In this document: positions 39,121-48,402 of the stretch, one piece after another
How positions within the stretch are numbered: position 1 is the first letter of the stretch
Layout of the letters: each line of letters begins with the position of its first letter
Origin: Euglena gracilis
Lineage: Eukaryota
Assembly: GCA_039621445.1 (NCBI GenBank)
Contig: CP154954.1
Coordinates: 19,330,642-19,394,641, forward strand
DNA: 64,000 nucleotides
Direction of reading: 5' to 3'
Notes under the pieces: model-generated
Told to the model about the DNA's origin: nothing
What the model saw: only the letters and a program-made list of their open reading frames with translations
Databases searched by the model: none
Translations under genes and position numbers: made by a program

Positions 39121-41536
39121 TCCTTCTAACGTACATACATGCATGCATGCATGCGTGCATACATATTTTGGACACTGTTTCGAAACATGCAAGAAAACCA
39201 CAAAAAGCGTAAAAATGCAAAGACTGCAAAAGAAACATAGTTTCATTCCCCCCTTGCAACAAGTGAAGAAAAAAAATAGATGGTAGAATAGCAGTGTGGA
39301 GGCCAGCAAGAAAGCGCGAGAAAGGCTCTGGGTCAGGCCAGGAAGGAGGTCATCCGGCCTAACACTTGCAACAAGGGCCCAAAAATGAAGGTCTGATACA
39401 GCGTCTTGTGTGACGGCGTTCCCTTGTTTTTGTGAACAAACAACTGGGGGGGCTTAAGATTCAAGCTGAGATGAATACTTTTAAATACGTTTGGGACAGA
39501 AAGGAAAACCTTGAACACACAACCTGTTTCAGCACTGTCCCAACGCACCAGGGGGGGGGGGTGACCGAGCCAGGGTGACACGGATTGGACCAGGGCCTAA
39601 CTGTCAGGTAACCCAAAACACGTCCCCTCTTTAAGGTATTGTGCAAAACAATGATAACTTCCGAAGCCAATGCCCAAAAGCTTGTGTTGTAATGGTTGGG
39701 GACCATGGTGTTTGGGGTGGGTTTTCAGCACCTTTCCTCATTATTAAAGACGACTTTCCTCATATTGTGAGGACGCATAAGCGAGTGCAGAGGACAATTT
39801 CCGAGGGGGGGGGTCTCGATCAGAGGGGGAAATGACAGTTGTTTGCCGCCAACAGAAGAAACCAAAATAAAGTTCACACATGTTCGTGACCAGAAACCTG
39901 GAAAAAGTGTTTGTAGTTTTCTTCACTGTGGGAAATTGCAATAAAATGTGGGAGGAAAACTGTCAAGAGACGGGGCAGGAGCCAGACTATCAGGTCCCTG
40001 TGAGAGAAAAGTGGGTAGAGGACAGTTTTGTGGGGGTGGTATGTGGCCCGGTTTTTCCAGTGCAGTACAGGTCTGGGCCACCTTCCCGGGGAGGGGCCCT
40101 CCCTCAAAGCAGAACGGGAGTCGGCCAAACAACCAGGGTGTCGGAGGGGGTCGACCACCCCCCCACCAGGCCTTCCCGTTCTGCCCTGCCCCCCCCCCTC
40201 CCCCCCCAGGTTGGTCAAATTCAGCCTGTCGGAGGCAGGGGTTGAGAGGCTGCGGAAGGAGCTCGCTGTGACGGCAGGGTGCTCGACCCATCATTTGTCC
40301 CTGGCAATTCGAGAACCGGTTTGCTACAACTTCCTGACCTCCTGACCCAGAGACCCTGGCTTCACAAGGGACCCCGACCATTTCAGGCATCAGGGAGGAA
40401 GCGTGGGAGGTGGGGGGGGGGGGGTGACAGCCCTCTTTAGTTTGATGGTCCACATTCCACCACCCCAAAGTATCAGACCCTGCAGAGGCACCATTGTACG
40501 CCGTACACGCACAACATCATATACTGACACGGCGGCCGACACCCAATGGGGGGGTCATTGAGGGGCCGCACATGCGGCATTGCTTACCTGGCATGCTGCC
40601 CTTGGCGCTTAGGTGCCGCAGACAACATGGTGAGGAGCAGGCTGGATTTGACTGAACAACAGTCAGGCACCGAAGCAACCACATCCTTCCTACTGGTGAG
40701 AGCATTTCTGTGCAACGCACACCTTGGGGGTGGGGGGCTTGGGGGAGACAACCTTGAGTCCAATTTTTTTTGTTGCTTCGCACAAAAAAAAAGAGGGAGG
40801 GCCCCCCGTAGGGGGGGGTTAAGCACTCGGCTTGTCCCTGGGGACCCCCAATGTCACCAAACTGAAAATGATGTAGGCACCCCTGCTCCCCTTCTTGGGG
40901 GGGGGGTGGGGGGGGGTTGAACCCGCCATAAGATATGTGTTTGTGTGTGCATTGCACAATATTTTTGATAGAGTCGGTGAGAAAAAAATGCCCGAAAATG
41001 CCATTTGGGGGGGGGGGCAAATTTCAAATCCCCAAAAATTTCTGGCGCTTTGTGCGTATTTTTACAGGGGGAGGAAAGATCTGACCCCCCTCCAGGGGAT
41101 CATGACCTACCCTCCCTCCCTCCTTCCCTCCTGGGGGCGGCCCTGGGGGGGGGGTCTGAGACTTAAGTAAAACAATCCCCCGCTGAGGGGTAGGGTGCGC
41201 ATGGGTCAGGGTTTTGGCCTTGCTGAACGTAAAATTTTTCCAGCGTTTTGGGACGATTTTGGCTGTGGTCCAGAGGCCCCGACCCACCCACCCACTCTCG
41301 AAAACCCACCCCCAGGGGGGGTCGCACAGGTGTTCAGTGAATCTATGTGTGCGGCCCAAGTTACTTTGGCACTCGCCATTGAAAGCGTAGAAAGCACCAT
41401 CATCGCATAATTTTGGCCCCAGAGACCTCCTTGTCAACCCTGGGCGGGGCAGCGCTGGGCCCATTTTTGACGCATGAGCCCAGTGAGTCGGCATTGCAAA
41501 ATACAGCCTGGGAAGGGTTCCCAGCCCCCTTTGGAC

Positions 41537-44500
41537 TTATTTCTGGAGCTGCTTCTCGTATGTGATCAGTTGGTCGATGAAACCGTCACAAGGGAACGTT
41601 GCCAGCAAGCACCCATGGCAGCTCACTGAACAACGAGAGTGGTGGTGCGGAGAAAGAGCTGGCCCCCACAGAAAGTGCTTGATAACAGCTGGAGTCTTGG
41701 GGAAAGCAAATACCAAAAAAAACTTATTTCACAGGGGAAATAGGTGCTGGGAGCCTCATCAACAACCAAATACCGAGAAAACTGAAGAATCACAAACTAA
41801 GTAAAATGAGTTGTTTGTTTTGTTAGTTTGTCTGGCTTCACTCACGAGGGGTGGCCCTCCTGAGTTGGTTGTTGGATCACCCCGCCCTGCCATGAATCCT
41901 ATTCCCTAAACCACTTGATTTGCGCCAATTGGAGACATGGGTTTTCTTTAAGCACACAACACCCGGACAGGGTAAGGCCGGAACCGAGCCGGACATTCTG
42001 AAAAAAGAAACCGGCAGAATATAATCGGAAATTTTTTGTTTGTATTGTTTGTATTTTTCAGAGGCCAACCTGAAAAATATTTGCCAAAATAATCCCTAAT
42101 TTTCAAGCAGGGGTCAAGAACGATGAAATGATGGTTTGTTCTTGTTGTTGTTGTTTTGTCTAATGGGTTTTTTTTGTGACCCCTGCCCACTGGGAATGCC
42201 TGCTGGGCTGGTTGCGAAGGGGAGCCCCTTTGGGGGCCTTAAAAAGAAGCCTGGCTGTGACCTTCAGGACTTCAGAACTGCGTTCATTGGCGTTTCAAAA
42301 CTGCATTCAGTGAGGCTTCGTCAGGTGGTTGAAGCACATCCAGGGCACTGGGCTACTTCAAACCATCAAAAAAAGACACAAATACCTCATTCGTGACCGA
42401 ATCGGAATTCTAGCATTGTGTTGTGATGTAATGTGCCATGCCCCCCCCCAACAGTGTCCCATACCCAGCTCGACCACAGGGTGGGTATGGGACACTATCA
42501 GGGGGGCCACTATTGGGGTGGGGGGGCTGTCTGGCACCATCGGGGTGGGGGGGGGGACAAGGGACTTTCAATCGAGCTTTGGGGCTTGGGTGCGCCCCAG
42601 CGCTCCGCCACGTACCGTGTAGCATCAGCGGCGTTCAGCCCCTTCTCTTTCATCACGTAGGCGATGGCGAACACTGGCCCTCTCGGGCTGGAAGTGGTGG
42701 CAAAAAGTACAACCCTTCCCACCCCCCCCAAAAAAACAATACCCCCCGTATTTCTGTTCTTTTGAGAGACATTTGTTGGGCAAATGCATCTTCAAGCACT
42801 CTTCCTAACCTCAAATCCGTTAAATGGCTTCTTTTTTGGCCCTTTTCAACCTCGAATTTTTTGACTTCAAAAGATTTCAGGAGGGAATACTCCCCCCAAA
42901 TAATAGCCCCCTCTTGGACCGGGACCTCGGGTGAAAAGGAGCAAACCCCGTGGTATCATTTGGGGATTTAGTAATGCTGGTGGGGTTGGACCAGACTGAA
43001 TTTGACCAACCGCGGGGGAGGGGGGTTCAGAATGCCCGGGAGTGTAGGCAAGAATGACCTGAGTTTTGTGCTGGCCTGGTCACGCATCGTCAGTCAAACC
43101 CGGGTCATTGGGCTTCCAGGATGGGAAACCGAGGCGGCGCAGTGCACGTAGGCGGGCTCCCCGGCCGCCTTCGCCCCGTCGATGGCATCGATCACCTTCG
43201 GGAGCACTGCTAGCACGTCCCCTGTCTCGTCCTCGATCTCCACTGTGCCCGGGGCGCCGCTGACAGACCCCCCGGCGCGCCGCAGTTTAGAAAGTTGGGA
43301 AAGTAAAACCGATTGGATGGATCCTGAGGGGTTGGATTTCCGCAAAATCCAATTGCTTCTGCCTCCCAGAGGGCCTCCGGGCTTCAGCGGCGCTCTGGTC
43401 GGGACGTAAGTTTTCCCGGGGTAGAAGTCCGAGGCAGTGGCTGGCCAGCAACGGTGCAACCCACGATTGAAAATAAACAAATGAAATCTTTCAATAACTG
43501 GGTCCCCTTCCGGGGGGTTAGATGAACATGGGGGGACTCCCTGCATTTCACAAGAGGGCCCAAGAGCCAAGGCAGGGTCGTGCTCTCCTCGTGCTTTTTG
43601 TTTGTTGGTTTGGAATAAGAGATCTTTAGTACACCACATTTGACACCAAACTCCGGTTTGTTTGTTTGTTTGACACCCATTTACTCCTAAAAACTTGTAG
43701 GGGAAAAGTCGATGAAAACACCCAAAAAAAACATTCACCTCGCCTCACTCAGGACCAACTTTGACGGCCGAAATAATAACCCCCCAATCAGGCTTTTTGC
43801 TTAAGGACCCCGGGGGGGGGGGGTACTGGCTAGCCAATCGGCAAGCCAATCGGCTAGACACTGGAAAAAGCTAGACCCCCGGGGTCCAGGGGTCCCCCGA
43901 ACTGGAAAAATGAGGTTTTTAACAGGTTTTTGGCTGATTTTGTTCCAAAAATTCCCAGAAATGGCCAAAAACGGGCATTTTGGGCCATTTTTGGGGGTCC
44001 CAAAAAAATTTGAAGCGCCGGGCACTGGGAAAAAAATTTCCACTAGCTAGCCCTGCTAGCAGACCCCCCCCCGGGGGGGTCTGCTAGAAATCCCACTCGC
44101 CAGATTTGGACTCGCTGCAGCCCAGCCCCCCCCCCCCCCACGGGGGGTACTGCAATCCCTTAAGCAAAAGCCTGCCCCCAATGAACTGAAACCAGAAGCA
44201 TTGGGAAAGTCATACAGATCATTGGGCAGCTGTTGTCTGCCTCTGCACTCCCACACATCTTACGACATTTCCTGAATGTGTACCAACAATGCCAAGAGCC
44301 TTATATTTGGGCAGAATTTAGGCTCTCAGGGAGTTGATTTGGGGGCACTGTTTTTGGAGGGGCAAAAAGAACGTTTGGGCAGCGTGTACCTACTTCTATT
44401 GCCTCAATACCATTTTTATGTGTATATCTGTCGCTGCAGTTGTATTTTAGCATATACAGGGGGAGGGGGATAAAATTGTTCCGCATGATTTTCAGCGCCA

Positions 44501-46323
44501 AAAATTGACCGAGAAGGTTCAATTTTCAATTCAAACATGGCCCCTGGCCTTTCTTTTTGGACTCTCAGACATTTCCCCTCAATGCATGGTCATTTTCATT
44601 TTCATTAGGCCCGACTGAAATATAGCTGATTCAAAGGTCAAGAAAAAGAAGCACAGAAGAAGTGTATTTATTTGAGAAAAGTATTTACAAATTAGGAGTG
44701 AAAAAGAAAAAAAGATTGAAGAAGAATTATCAGCAGGTGCAGAGACAGGAGACAAAAGAATAGGTTGAGATTAAGGATAGGTTGGTGAGCACAGGGGTTT
44801 GTGGGCATGTTTAGTGATGAGATTTGGACAGCACCACCAGGATGCAAAGTCGCTAGTTCCCCACTGGGCAGGCCCCGGATTGCTTTTGTTCAGTCCCGCA
44901 TTGATCACGGTCCGCGGCAGCACCACCCAGCACTACGGCCACCTTCCCGTCACCCAGGCCCTACACAGCGGTGGCCGGCGGGGCTTCAAAGATTCTGCAA
45001 TTTGCTCCGCACCCTCCCCTTGGAAAAAAAATAATCCCCTGCTGACCGGGGGCAAAATACCCAATGAAAAAAAAAATGCAAAAAAATGCAAAAAATGCAA
45101 AAAAAATGCAAAAAAATGCAAGAAATGCAAAAAAATGCAAGAAAAAATCAGTATGCAAAAAAAGCAAACTATGCAACTTGCATGTCCCCCCTGCCCTGGC
45201 CTTGGAGTTTCCAACGGAGCAGGATAGTGCACGAAAATTCCTTCTGAAAAAAAGGTGCCGAAAGAAACTTCTGACCTAAAACTTAGCCCCTTAAGGAAGG
45301 GGGAGGGGCTGTTCACGTTGTGACCCCCTGGCACTTTCCTGGGCAAAAACCCATCCACCCACTTTTTTTTGAAAACCTGCCAATCCACAGCACCCACTCA
45401 GCCACCCAAAATCGCCCGAAAATCAGCCAAAAACCCTTAAGAATTTTCTGTCCAACCTACTGCCCTGGCGCACACCACCCCAAGGGGGGGGGGTCAGCAG
45501 TCCAAACCCACCCGCCCACTTTTGAAAATACACTCACCCGTCTCCCTCCAGGGGGTGGGATCACACAAGGGATAAATGAATGTGTGGTGTCCAGATATCC
45601 AGGTTCCCAGGGTTCCGCCCGTGTGGGGGTGGTCCTGGGCTTCACATTCAAATCATCCAAGAGTGGCAATTTCAGGGCGTCGTCCTTCGTCCCAATGTGC
45701 AGCCATGGAAAGGGGGAGGGCCATGCGAAAGCACAGGAAGTGAGCAGCAAAAAAGCAACTCAACTCGCAACTCCCCAAGATGAGCTGGACAGCTGCAAAA
45801 TTCTTCATCGTTGTTCTTCGCCAGCCCCTGAAATAATCCTCTCAAGAATACTTTGTAAAAATTGAGAATGTGTTGATGAAGAAAACCATTGCACACAGCC
45901 TGCACAAAAAAAAAATCAAACAGGGTCCACCCAATCCCCCCCCCCAGCCCCCCAGCCCCCTAGCCCCCTACGGGCGGATCTGGATGCCCGCAGACAAGGA
46001 TCCTCTTGGGGTGGGATCGGACATCATTGATGAATTTTTGTTGGAAGATTTCAAAGAGCGCCCGTTGTGAAAAGCCACACCCTTCACGCTTTGGGGAAAT
46101 TTTGGGTGCTTTGCTTACAAATCTGTTTGTGTTTAAAGTTTCCGGGATCCAACACGCGGCTGGAGAACGCAAACCTTGCGCCACCATTTGTCGGCCGTTG
46201 ACAGGCCCTTCTGCCCTTCCTGCAGCGCCCTCAGCGGATCTCGGCGGGGGGCAGCCCGTGGTTGACGTCGGGGCGGGCCGCCTTGAGGCATGCGGCACGG
46301 ACGTCGGCTGGGGTGGAGGACAT
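41537..46323 (-). CDS. Dual-specificity protein phosphatase (atypical DUSP), 7 exons, 168 aa
   Basis: Exons 46236-46323, 45641-45710, 44870-44912, 43401-43429, 43123-43244, 42592-42682 and 41537-41600 sum to 507 nt: ...PAEILPWLHIG...VKTVINAG...YVPVEIED...VHCAASVSRGPVFAIAYVM...FPCDGFIDQLITYE. The CX5R catalytic loop is assembled across an intron. Confidence 0.9.
43789..44174. mobile_element. hAT-type MITE (family A), nested in a phosphatase intron
   Basis: Homologous to 14825-15221; perfect 8-bp TSD CCCCCAAT. Confidence 0.95.
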
Positions 46324-46787
46324 GGCGGGGGCAGCTGTGCTGTGGGGGGGAAGCGGGGGGATTCCCACAAAACCAGCAACACATCAAGACAGCATTGCTG
46401 CGTGCTCTGAGGTCATGCTGCAGGCGTTTCAAGCCGTTGTTGGTGACAGCCTGTCTGCAGAACAAAGGATGCAAGCTTCTTCACAAACGGCCACAGGTTG
46501 GTTGCCCCGGCGTACGCGACAACACCTGACAGAGAAACTACACTCCCCATCACCACAGACTCGGCCCCAAGGGCGCCCCACACCACACGGCGCTCGGAGG
46601 TTTGGCACGTCTGACAAGGATGAGTCTTGGTCTTGTATTCTTGGGGGGGTACCAAGAGTGACCCAAGATTCTTGCCCCCCCACCCAAGACCCAAGATCTT
46701 GGGTGCAGGCAATGCGAATGTGAAGAAACAAGATGCTCAACACCAAGTCTTGGCCCTTGCCATCACATGCATGGTGCTTCACAAGGA

Positions 46788-48402
46788 TCAAGATTTGCGT
46801 CGTTTTGCTAGGATCTCATCTAGCAACGCCTCCTGTTTAGCACGATGCTTTTCACGCAAAGCAGAGTTGCGCTCAGGCTGTTTTTTTTTTTACCAACCCC
46901 GGGGGGGAGGGGGGTCAGAAGTGCCTTTGAGTGCCTGCCCAGGCAGGCACTACCCCCCCGGGGGGGGTTGGGTTTCGGCCTGTGCCCAGGCACTTTCCTT
47001 GGAAAATCGGCCATTTTAGGCCATTTTTTTTTGCCTTCCGGCGCCTTCGGCGCCAGGGTGCCTTGCCAGGCACTTTTGGCCAAGTTTGTTGGAGTGCCTT
47101 GGGGTGCCTGCCCACTAAAAAACAGCCTGGTTGCGCTTGGTCCTTTCTTCGGCCAGCTTTGGACGCATGACAGAAACATAGTTCATGGCAAGCCAGAGCT
47201 GTGACTCGCAGTGCGAAGCGGTTAGGCGAGCCCGCAACTTCGTGAACATCTTGCCCTGGATCGAGAAGCTCCTTTCAACGGCCGCTTCCGTCACTGCAGC
47301 CTCTCCAAGCGCCAGCGCGAACTGGGGTAGCTCAAATGCCGAAGTTGCTTTGATGGCAGGGTTGTAAAGGTATTTCAAAGATTCAGGGACACACAAACAG
47401 GTTGGCCAAATAACATTGTTCGCATGCCCAAAAGGTCGACATCGTTGGCTCACACAAGAAAGAAAACTTTAGTTTTGCGACGAGGTGCCTACCAACGAAT
47501 GAAAATGTCACCGAAAACAACACTGGTCACATGCCCAGTACTCAGCGTAGGAGTCCGACGTTGATATCGTCCTCACCAGAAACCGACCGAGTTGTCCTGA
47601 AAAAGAAAAATAACCATTTCAGGTTACACGAACAGAGGCACACCAGCAAAGGACATGTCATTATCAGCAACAATACAGAAGACAAACACCTCCTTGGAAT
47701 CCAAATCTTGGATGATTATTTCCAATTGCTTCAATATTTCAAGGGTGTTCAGGCATGGCACACGGAGGCTCCTCCAAAAATAAGATTTGCCCTCACAACC
47801 AATGGATACGTTCAATAATCTCATCCGGTTCAAGGTCCCCCCATCCACCAGGAGGAAAACGTTCTTACTGCGCAACCTGAAAAAATATTTTTGCATGCAC
47901 GGTAAAAATGAAAAAAATACCTTCGCAAAAGAACATTCTCTGCATTACTCTTGAGCGTTTCGGTTGCGGATGCTAATTCATTTCGATCCATCTTCCGTGG
48001 GATTTGAACGCCGAAGGCGTCACGGAAGGACTCATCATCCACCAATTGGTAAGGAAGCCCATTTTGTGCAAACGCAAGGACAACTTTTTCCCTTTGTTGG
48101 CGATCAACTTCGTCCTTCATTCCGAAAGCACGAATGTCCATTTGACCTGAACCCTGTTCTTCTGCAGATCCCTCAACCGAGGCAAACTCCTTGCGGTGCA
48201 CATCACGGATGTGAATACGCAATCCATTTGTGGAGAAATTGGTTGCCTTGATAATCTGATTACAAGGAACTTTGGTGAGGGCACCATCAACATTTGCATC
48301 AATTTCCAATGTACACTTGTACAACTGGCCTTTCCAAGTCGCAGGTAAATCAGGCAAGGTCGTCTTATCAACGGCTTTGTAGAACTTCTTGAACACAGCC
48401 AT
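46788..48402 (-). pseudogene. hAT transposase remnant
   Basis: BED-like finger (C...C...LRIHIRDVH), LPYQLVDDESFR, LLVDGGT, IVADN, and the hAT C-terminal motif TEAAVERSFS..G......RARL. There is a 44-nt GT-AG intron at 47877-47920. The central region is much shorter than a full hAT transposase and has stops in all frames. Confidence 0.85.
46874..47129. mobile_element. hAT-type MITE inserted in the transposase reading frame
   Basis: TIR CAGGCTGTTTTTT / AAAAAACAGCCTG; perfect 8-bp TSD GTTGCGCT. Confidence 0.95.

Follow-up and report, generated by a model that had tools for sequence, protein, structure and literature searches.

Seven nonconventional introns in one helix register in a Euglena gracilis gene for a predicted dual-specificity phosphatase

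How are introns delimited when their ends carry no GT-AG? A gene of Euglena gracilis raises this question. It lies in a window of 64,000 nucleotides (assembly GCA_039621445.1, contig CP154954.1, positions 19,330,642 to 19,394,641 of the forward strand), which is the whole stretch of DNA analyzed and from whose first letter all coordinates below are counted. The gene occupies the minus strand from about 46340 to about 40398. We conclude with high confidence that it is a nuclear Euglena gene for a 168-residue dual-specificity phosphatase, whose pre-mRNA, probably trans-spliced to the spliced leader (SL) at 46340, loses seven nonconventional cis-introns in one fixed helix register. The original prediction, made from the letters alone, had described a gene with six introns, all nonconventional. 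All six are of this kind, but the prediction overlooked a seventh intron in the 3' untranslated region (UTR; 40633-41513), the probable SL site at 46340 and a rare cryptic GT-AG intron (44961-46174).

An ATG at 46323-46321 on the minus strand starts a reading frame that is interrupted six times. Removing the six introns yields an open frame of 168 amino acids with a stop codon at 41537-41539. When rebuilt from the minus strand, the six introns have exactly the coordinates, ends and triplets that had been predicted, and the RNA joints concur. The peptides expected across the joined exons, EILPWLHIG, HCAASVSRG and RWGATFP, are all present in the spliced frame. The pre-mRNA is 5,941 nt long and contains the following exons.

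46236-46340, minus strand: exon 1; 5'UTR (46324-46340), ATG (46323-46321) and 88 nt of coding sequence (CDS)
45641-45710, minus strand: exon 2, 70 nt
44870-44912, minus strand: exon 3, 43 nt
43401-43429, minus strand: exon 4, 29 nt
43123-43244, minus strand: exon 5, 122 nt; bears most of the catalytic loop, HCAASVS
42592-42682, minus strand: exon 6, 91 nt; opens with the two bases that complete the Arg of the CX5R motif
41514-41600, minus strand: exon 7; last part of the CDS (stop at 41537-41539), then the first part of the 3'UTR
40398-40632, minus strand: exon 8, 3'UTR; the 3' end is approximate, computed from a 676-nt contig of run X1 (see below) that reaches 235 nt past 41514

The introns between these exons are listed below in the order of transcription. 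Triplets are given as +4 to +6 over -8 to -6. Direct repeats render junctions slidable, as described by Milanowski (2014, PMC3935182; 2016, PMC4770533), and the extent of sliding is included.

45711-46235, minus strand: intron 1, 525 nt; ends GC..CT; GAG/CTC; helix GAGGGC/GCCCTC (6 bp); non-slidable; next exon starts with T
44913-45640, minus strand: intron 2, 728 nt; ends GC..CG; CAG/CTG; 3 bp, a mismatch and 7 bp; slidable by 1
43430-44869, minus strand: intron 3, 1440 nt; ends GC..CG; CAG/CTG; helix CAGTGG/CCACTG (6 bp); slidable by 1
43245-43400, minus strand: intron 4, 156 nt; ends GA..AC; CAG/CCG; slidable by 1; in frame and without stop codons
42683-43122, minus strand: intron 5, 440 nt; ends AT..GA; CTG/CAG; helix CTGGAAG/CTTCCAG (7 bp); non-slidable
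41601-42591, minus strand: intron 6, 991 nt; ends AC..GC; CAA/TTG; helix CAAGC/GCTTG (5 bp), a mismatch and 2 bp
40633-41513, minus strand: intron 7, 881 nt, in the 3'UTR; CAG/CTG; helix CAGGCTG/CAGCCTG (7 bp), a mismatch and 4 bp; slidable by 3; next exon starts with C

The six predicted introns had been said to lack GT-AG ends, and none acquires them at any allowed sliding position. Intron 6 can be placed in four ways owing to a 3-nt direct repeat (GCA), and GT-AG appears in none of them. More broadly, none of the seven introns has GT/GC..AG or AT..AC ends, whichever sliding position is taken.

The junctions are established by RNA. Positions 41000-46800 were compared with Logan contigs of three runs (X1, X2 and X4) and with raw RNA-seq reads of a fourth (X21), of which about 5% was read. 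The four runs belong to four coded studies. X21 is recorded as RNA under the same species label, and X1, X2 and X4 were picked from 19 runs of one organism label that share 5-16% of the words sampled from the stretch. All six predicted joints are seen in all four runs, and they match the predicted introns exactly or within the sliding ambiguity, given below as "both". Each of the three contig runs contributes one contig per joint, at depths of 264-2800.

Joint 41599>42591: skip of 991 nt; both=3; 70 reads of X21
Joint 42682>43123: skip of 440 nt; both=0; 93 reads of X21
Joint 43244>43401: skip of 156 nt; both=1; 88 reads of X21
Joint 43428>44869: skip of 1440 nt; both=1; 87 reads of X21
Joint 44911>45640: skip of 728 nt; both=1; 71 reads of X21
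Joint 45710>46236: skip of 525 nt; both=0; 38 reads of X21; contig depth 2800 (X1), 500.7 (X2) and 970 (X4)

Several minor joints accompany the main ones. Joint 45710>46242 is present in three reads, and joint 45709>46236 with an extra G and a 33-nt skip within intron 4 occur at low depth. Two additional low-depth skips fall in a repeat nested in intron 3.

The seventh intron emerges at the 3' end. Matches break off at 41514 and continue into other sequence in 54 reads of X21 and in one contig each of X1, X2 and X4, which extend 235, 31 and 240 nt beyond this position. The 30-nt consensus of the loose end has a single match in the window, at 40603-40632, with 0 mismatches. The loose end and its unique match therefore define an 881-nt intron at 40633-41513 in the 3'UTR. 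Its joint is read from loose ends because the aligned stretch began at 41000. The intron begins TCC-CAGGCTG and ends CAGCCTG-CTCCT, thus consisting at its termini of three nucleotides, a 7-bp helix and five nucleotides.

Two further features with conventional borders lie at the 5' part of the gene.

46340-46341, minus strand: putative SL (trans-splice) acceptor; AG at the end of the outron, preceded by a C-rich pyrimidine tract; mRNA body from 46340 or 46339
44961-46174, minus strand: rare cryptic intron of 1214 nt with conventional GT..AG ends; begins within intron 1, ends within intron 2 and skips exon 2

Loose ends behind 46340 are found in 11 reads of X21 and in one contig each of X1 and X4. 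The non-genomic run reads TTTTTTTTC on the mRNA strand (eight T, then C), and about 10 bases of the leader are seen. The genomic tract upstream of the acceptor ends in ...CCCCCCCACA, followed across the cut by G. We take the T-run to be the 3' end of the Euglena spliced leader. On these approximately 10 bases, SL addition probably takes place at 46340, and the leader is putative. In X2 only, one contig departs from the gene at 46331 into 27 unrelated letters that are not the leader; this contig may be chimeric.

The cryptic intron is observed as joint 44959>46174 (CT..AC on the plus strand, cut +1) in an X2 contig with a depth of 8.41, compared with 500.7 for the main form, and in two reads of X21. 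The resulting isoform is non-productive because a stop codon directly follows exon 1 in the retained intron 1 sequence. Conventional splicing is described as preceding nonconventional removal (PMC6221363), and a cryptic intron that starts within an unremoved intron 1 fits this order. Differing junctions or extra exons with GT-AG borders had been named as outcomes contrary to the prediction. Neither is found in the main mRNA, and only this rare cryptic isoform has GT-AG borders.

The spliced frame is matched by an independent protein. The 40-residue translation of exon 5 was searched in a word index for longer proteins, which returned two proteins among 68 candidates. The transcript-derived eukprot protein EG_transcript_21736 (168 aa) agrees with the spliced model in 167 of its 168 residues and contains all six of the peptides that span the junctions. 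If EG in its source name is read as E. gracilis, this name, the many RNA studies and the leader sequence all point to that species. The sole mismatch, V20A, corresponds to an A>G difference at 46265 that is carried by most reads. Other differences between reads and window are 46268 T>G (D19A), present in about one third of X21 reads and in no other run, and synonymous changes at 41558 and 43223. These four variants are probably alleles, strain differences or near-identical copies.

EG_transcript_21736 scores 78.8 bits on Pfam PF00782 (DSPc), where the gathering cut-off is 33.5, and the match spans positions 2-133 of the 133-position profile. Lone exons reach only 19.2 and 16.5 bits, below threshold, at the consecutive profile positions 48-85 and 89-113. 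The catalytic HCX5R loop, the defining motif of the dual-specificity phosphatase family, is present as HCAASVSR and is split by intron 5 across the junction of exons 5 and 6. By the DSPc match and this loop, the product is assigned as a dual-specificity phosphatase, with predicted enzyme activity. A match to PF22785 was disregarded, as its 18.2 bits lie below the cut-off of 27. Solved structures searched with the 40 residues of exon 5 by themselves returned no more than two chance-level matches (E = 0.23 and 0.65), an uninformative outcome.

Intron 4 could be mistaken for retained coding sequence, being in frame and free of stop codons, but the 88 junction reads and EG_transcript_21736 rule this out. 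Reading through intron 4 gives an open reading frame (ORF) of 216 aa at 43094-43744 on the minus strand. The protein P0002 (214 aa), called on a Logan contig, shares 92% identity across 209 columns with the stop-free genomic read-through of the end of intron 3, exon 4, intron 4 and exon 5. It was rejected as a second protein form and is an ORF call on the unspliced sequence of a related copy. Since the 92% match includes the introns, a diverged second copy or allele of the locus exists somewhere.

All seven introns share a common terminal geometry. Three unpaired nucleotides precede a helix that starts from +4 opposite -6, and five unpaired nucleotides follow it, such that position +i is aligned to -(i+2). 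Perfect Watson-Crick pairing of +4, +5 and +6 with -6, -7 and -8 is present in six of the seven introns. The exception is intron 4, whose pairing runs C:G, A.C (+5/-7), G:C and A.C before continuing in the same register as a perfect helix of 10 bp (+8 to +17 with -10 to -19). Pairing past the triplet had been claimed for the first six introns and is found in register in all of them (6; 3+7; 6; 1+1+10; 7; and 5+2 bp), as well as in intron 7 (7+4 bp). The N3/N5 spacing had been proposed to be constant. It is read directly from the RNA in introns 1 and 5, because both are non-slidable (both=0), and it is an allowed position in the other four predicted introns. In a scan of 169 registers per intron, the longest helix lies at register (3,5) or its continuation (7,9) in seven of seven cases.

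Chance does not account for this arrangement. Among random pairs of positions in the pre-mRNA, at least three contiguous Watson-Crick pairs occur with P = 0.020 and at least six with P = 0.0006. By arithmetic, the joint chance that six of seven introns have at least 3 bp at +4/-6 is of the order of 1e-9, with the sliding choices (1-4 per intron) allowed for. Terminal fold energies, calculated for 10 nt + U7 + 10 nt in the manner of Gao 2024, do not set the seven introns apart from random pairs, of which a fraction of 0.04-0.65 does equally well; the informative test is the scan of registers.

The helix alone is not sufficient. The pre-mRNA contains 6,570 maximal helices of at least 6 bp, and 231 of these start with CAG, CTG or CGG. 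Those used are represented by seven major joints (six listed and one from loose ends) and four minor ones within the introns and exons of the gene. With so many decoy helices against so few joints, pairing cannot be enough.

The sequence at the helix base is also largely kept. Five of the seven introns have the C:G pair at +4/-6, and six have G:C at +6/-8. A purine occupies intron position +1 in six of seven cases, and the upstream exon ends in a pyrimidine in six of seven. The downstream exon begins with a purine in five of seven cases (G, G, A, G and A for introns 2-6) and has C as its third base in five of seven. It begins with T after intron 1, in agreement with the predicted pyrimidine, and with C after intron 7, where upstream sliding still leaves a pyrimidine after the cut.

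The prediction put pairing geometry in the place of sequence as what defines the sites, and it is consequently upheld in one part only. In its favor is covariation: GAG/CTC (intron 1) swaps the +4:-6 pair to G:C, CAA/TTG (intron 6) turns the +6:-8 pair into A:T, and both introns are removed in RNA. Both triplet pairs were rightly said to go beyond the usual consensus, as they lie outside the published signature 5'-N3CDG-/-CH'GN5-6 with R after the cut (Nomura 2025, PNAS, PMC12501133). What does not stand is the exclusion of sequence, given the preferred C:G and G:C pairs, the 6,570 decoy helices and the published substitutions that abolish splicing. That complementarity prevails over sequence was already concluded in 2016 (Milanowski) and is hence not new.

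The junctions, the helices and the constant register are shown by the data. In every intron the two ends match in a single register, with +4 opposite -6 and the helix extending inward, and the cut sites lie 3 nt ahead of the 5' strand of the helix and 5 nt beyond its 3' strand. Judging from the literature, the machinery would be distinct from the spliceosome, would measure from the helix, would favor C-D-G/C-H-G triplets as well as a purine behind the 3' cut, and may release the intron as a circle. Spliceosome-independent excision and a circular intron product are proposals put forward in Gao 2024 (PMC11170887) and Nomura 2025 (PMC12501133). In the present gene, the triplet changes at the outer and the inner pair are compensated on both strands, and the mismatched intron 4 has a further 10 bp of helix to support it.

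Some observations weigh against this explanation. In five of the seven, the N3/N5 register is one of 2-4 equivalent positions that give the same mRNA, and in intron 6 it ties with a rival 5-bp helix at register (0,10). The terminal energies of introns 2 and 4 are only -2.2 and -0.4 kcal/mol and are equaled by 36% and 65% of random pairs, respectively; stability in these two introns comes from pairing further inward. The joint of intron 7 is supported by loose ends and the unique 30-nt match, and no listed joint spans it. The RNA nature of X1, X2 and X4 is only guessed. In addition, intron 1 stands apart: X21 has a depth of about 2 in a wholly intronic bin of intron 1 (45850-46043) and 0 in seven other wholly intronic non-repeat bins, and an unspliced border contig of intron 1 has a depth of 3.7 against 970 in X4. 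Intron 1 (GAG/CTC, then T) may thus be removed less completely. This is a hint from small numbers, with 5% of X21 read, and the signal possibly derives in part from the cryptic isoform.

The joints could in principle be artefacts, produced by template switching of reverse transcriptase at paired or repeated ends, or by a processed, intron-less DNA copy. Terminal helices and direct repeats of 1-3 nt are a context that favors template switching, and the RNA status of three of the runs is guessed. We nevertheless give this explanation hardly any credence. The identical six joints recur in all four runs, each from a different coded study, with depths in the hundreds and essentially no unspliced signal, and two of them involve no repeat at all (both=0). 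The joined product is moreover a complete DSPc domain with a putative spliced-leader 5' end and is matched by an independent transcriptome-derived protein. A more specific doubt concerns introns 1 and 6, which might leave by another route, either through a spliceosome acting on non-canonical sites or through another helix register. Both lie outside the published signature, intron 6 has the equally long helix at (0,10) and four possible cut positions, and intron 1 has a pyrimidine after the cut and some retention. Such a route is nonetheless very improbable, as neither intron offers GT/GC-AG or AT-AC ends at any allowed position, and the best or joint-best helix of each lies exactly at (3,5), as in the canonical introns of the same gene. 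In the non-slidable intron 1 this spacing is taken straight from the RNA, and introns without the signature make up 38.8% of the nonconventional introns in Nomura 2025 (PMC12501133).

A harder question is how much the triplet itself matters. If the terminal helix and its geometry alone were recognized, any complementary triplet would serve equally, and CAG/CTG would be the inherited "fingerprint" of a transposon-like source, an alternative raised by Milanowski 2016 (PMC4770533). The removal of introns 1 and 6, with triplets compensated on both strands, agrees with this idea, and intron 6 has no intronic read depth. Agreeing too is the need for a helix past the triplet in Nomura 2025 (PMC12501133), where deletion of a 12-bp pairing abolished function. 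Equal use of all complementary triplets is difficult to reconcile, however, with the 6,570 unused helices of at least 6 bp and with the bias toward C:G at +4/-6 and G:C at +6/-8. Among the compensated middle-position variants in Nomura 2025 (PMC12501133), CTG-CAG alone was spliced, and a purine was preferred after the 3' cut. Furthermore, the only intron with a swapped outer pair, intron 1, is the only one with detectable retention. We therefore regard recognition by structure alone as unlikely.

A less extreme form deserves greater, if still tentative, weight. C:G at +4/-6 and G:C at +6/-8 may not be obligatory when changed on both strands, and the purine after the 3' cut may be dispensable; the machinery could then measure 3 and 5 nt from the end of the helix and not read CAG/CTG. 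If so, the partial retention of intron 1 would mean that the identity of the +4/-6 pair, or the pyrimidine after the cut, adjusts efficiency without being a requirement.

The introns also contain repeats. In intron 3, an element of about 390 bp (43783-44174) has terminal inverted repeats (AGGCTTTTTGCTTAAGG... and ...CCTTAAGCAAAAGCCT) and internal palindromes of long C/G runs. Its contig depth reaches 11,126 in X1, compared with a few hundred on the exons, and the element has the appearance of a MITE-like, dispersed repeat lying within the intron. In intron 2, a tandem repeat at 45069-45163 consists of 7.7 copies of the 10-nt unit AAAAAAATGC. Its depth in X1 is 5,920, and length variants are found in reads at 45089 and 45099; the very high depth and these variants indicate a repeat common to other loci. 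An X1 contig with a depth of 555 joins 45493 to 41029 through 33 other letters. Both sites lie in palindromic sequence of G/C runs and are likely to represent another dispersed repeat family.

The gene is a further well-verified member of the known class of Euglena genes with nonconventional introns. As a discovery it carries little weight, as such introns are the majority in Euglena (57% in E. gracilis, Gao 2024, PMC11170887; 71.8% in E. agilis, Nomura 2025, PMC12501133). At these frequencies a gene with seven introns, all nonconventional, is expected in about 2-10% of cases (0.57^7 = 0.02; 0.718^7 = 0.10), if introns are assumed to be independent. Its usefulness is that of a natural test set verified by RNA, with three introns of strict signature and four departures in one gene. 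In two of the departures the change is compensated, at +4/-6 and at +6/-8 respectively; the main text of Nomura 2025 (PMC12501133) gives no compensatory test for either position and reports compensated variants for the middle position only. The locus also shows that Euglena junctions can be predicted from the N3-helix-N5 rule by a reader without tools.

Compared with conventional GT/GC-AG introns, the seven main introns differ at every sliding position, whereas the cryptic intron at 44961-46174 and the putative SL acceptor, with its tract and AG, resemble them. Gao 2024 (PMC11170887) classified 16,151 of 28,337 E. gracilis introns as nonconventional, with the consensus CCAGG at +3 to +7, and distinguished "ss-invariant" from "ss-variant" nonconventional introns with terminal pairing. 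That work also described C-rich pyrimidine tracts before AG in Euglena outrons, which the C-rich tract and AG upstream of 46340 resemble.

In the model of Milanowski (2014, PMC3935182; 2016, PMC4770533), the pairing of +4, +5 and +6 with -6, -7 and -8 is the most conserved feature, and complementarity is kept rather than sequence. The model also has purines at +1 and directly behind the intron, a pyrimidine at the end of the upstream exon, and C as the third base of the next exon (2014, PMC3935182). The present gene differs in nothing essential from this model. Pairs +5/-7 and +6/-8 were described there as always paired in 55 introns (2014 PMC3935182 / 2016 PMC4770533), and intron 4 here has A.C at +5/-7.

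The closest comparison is with the code that Nomura 2025 (PMC12501133) defined by knock-in mutagenesis. As reported there, splicing was lost with any one-base change in CAG or CTG, a length of 3 nt is required of the 5' spacer, and on the 3' side a spacer of 5 nt works best and one of 6 nt is tolerated. The introns described here share with this code the lack of GT-AG ends, the 3- and 5-nt spacers, the triplets at +4 to +6 and -8 to -6, and the extended helix. The triplet rule (CDG/CH'G, complementary) is obeyed by introns 2, 3, 5 and 7 and not by introns 1, 4 and 6. Introns 2, 3 and 5 conform to the full signature, intron 5 in the CTG-CAG form tested in the paper. The remaining four lie outside the strict signature, with GAG/CTC followed by T, CAG/CCG with its A.C, CAA/TTG, and CAG/CTG followed by C. 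In E. agilis the signature is present in 61.2% of nonconventional introns, and the four departures fall within the published 38.8% that lack it.

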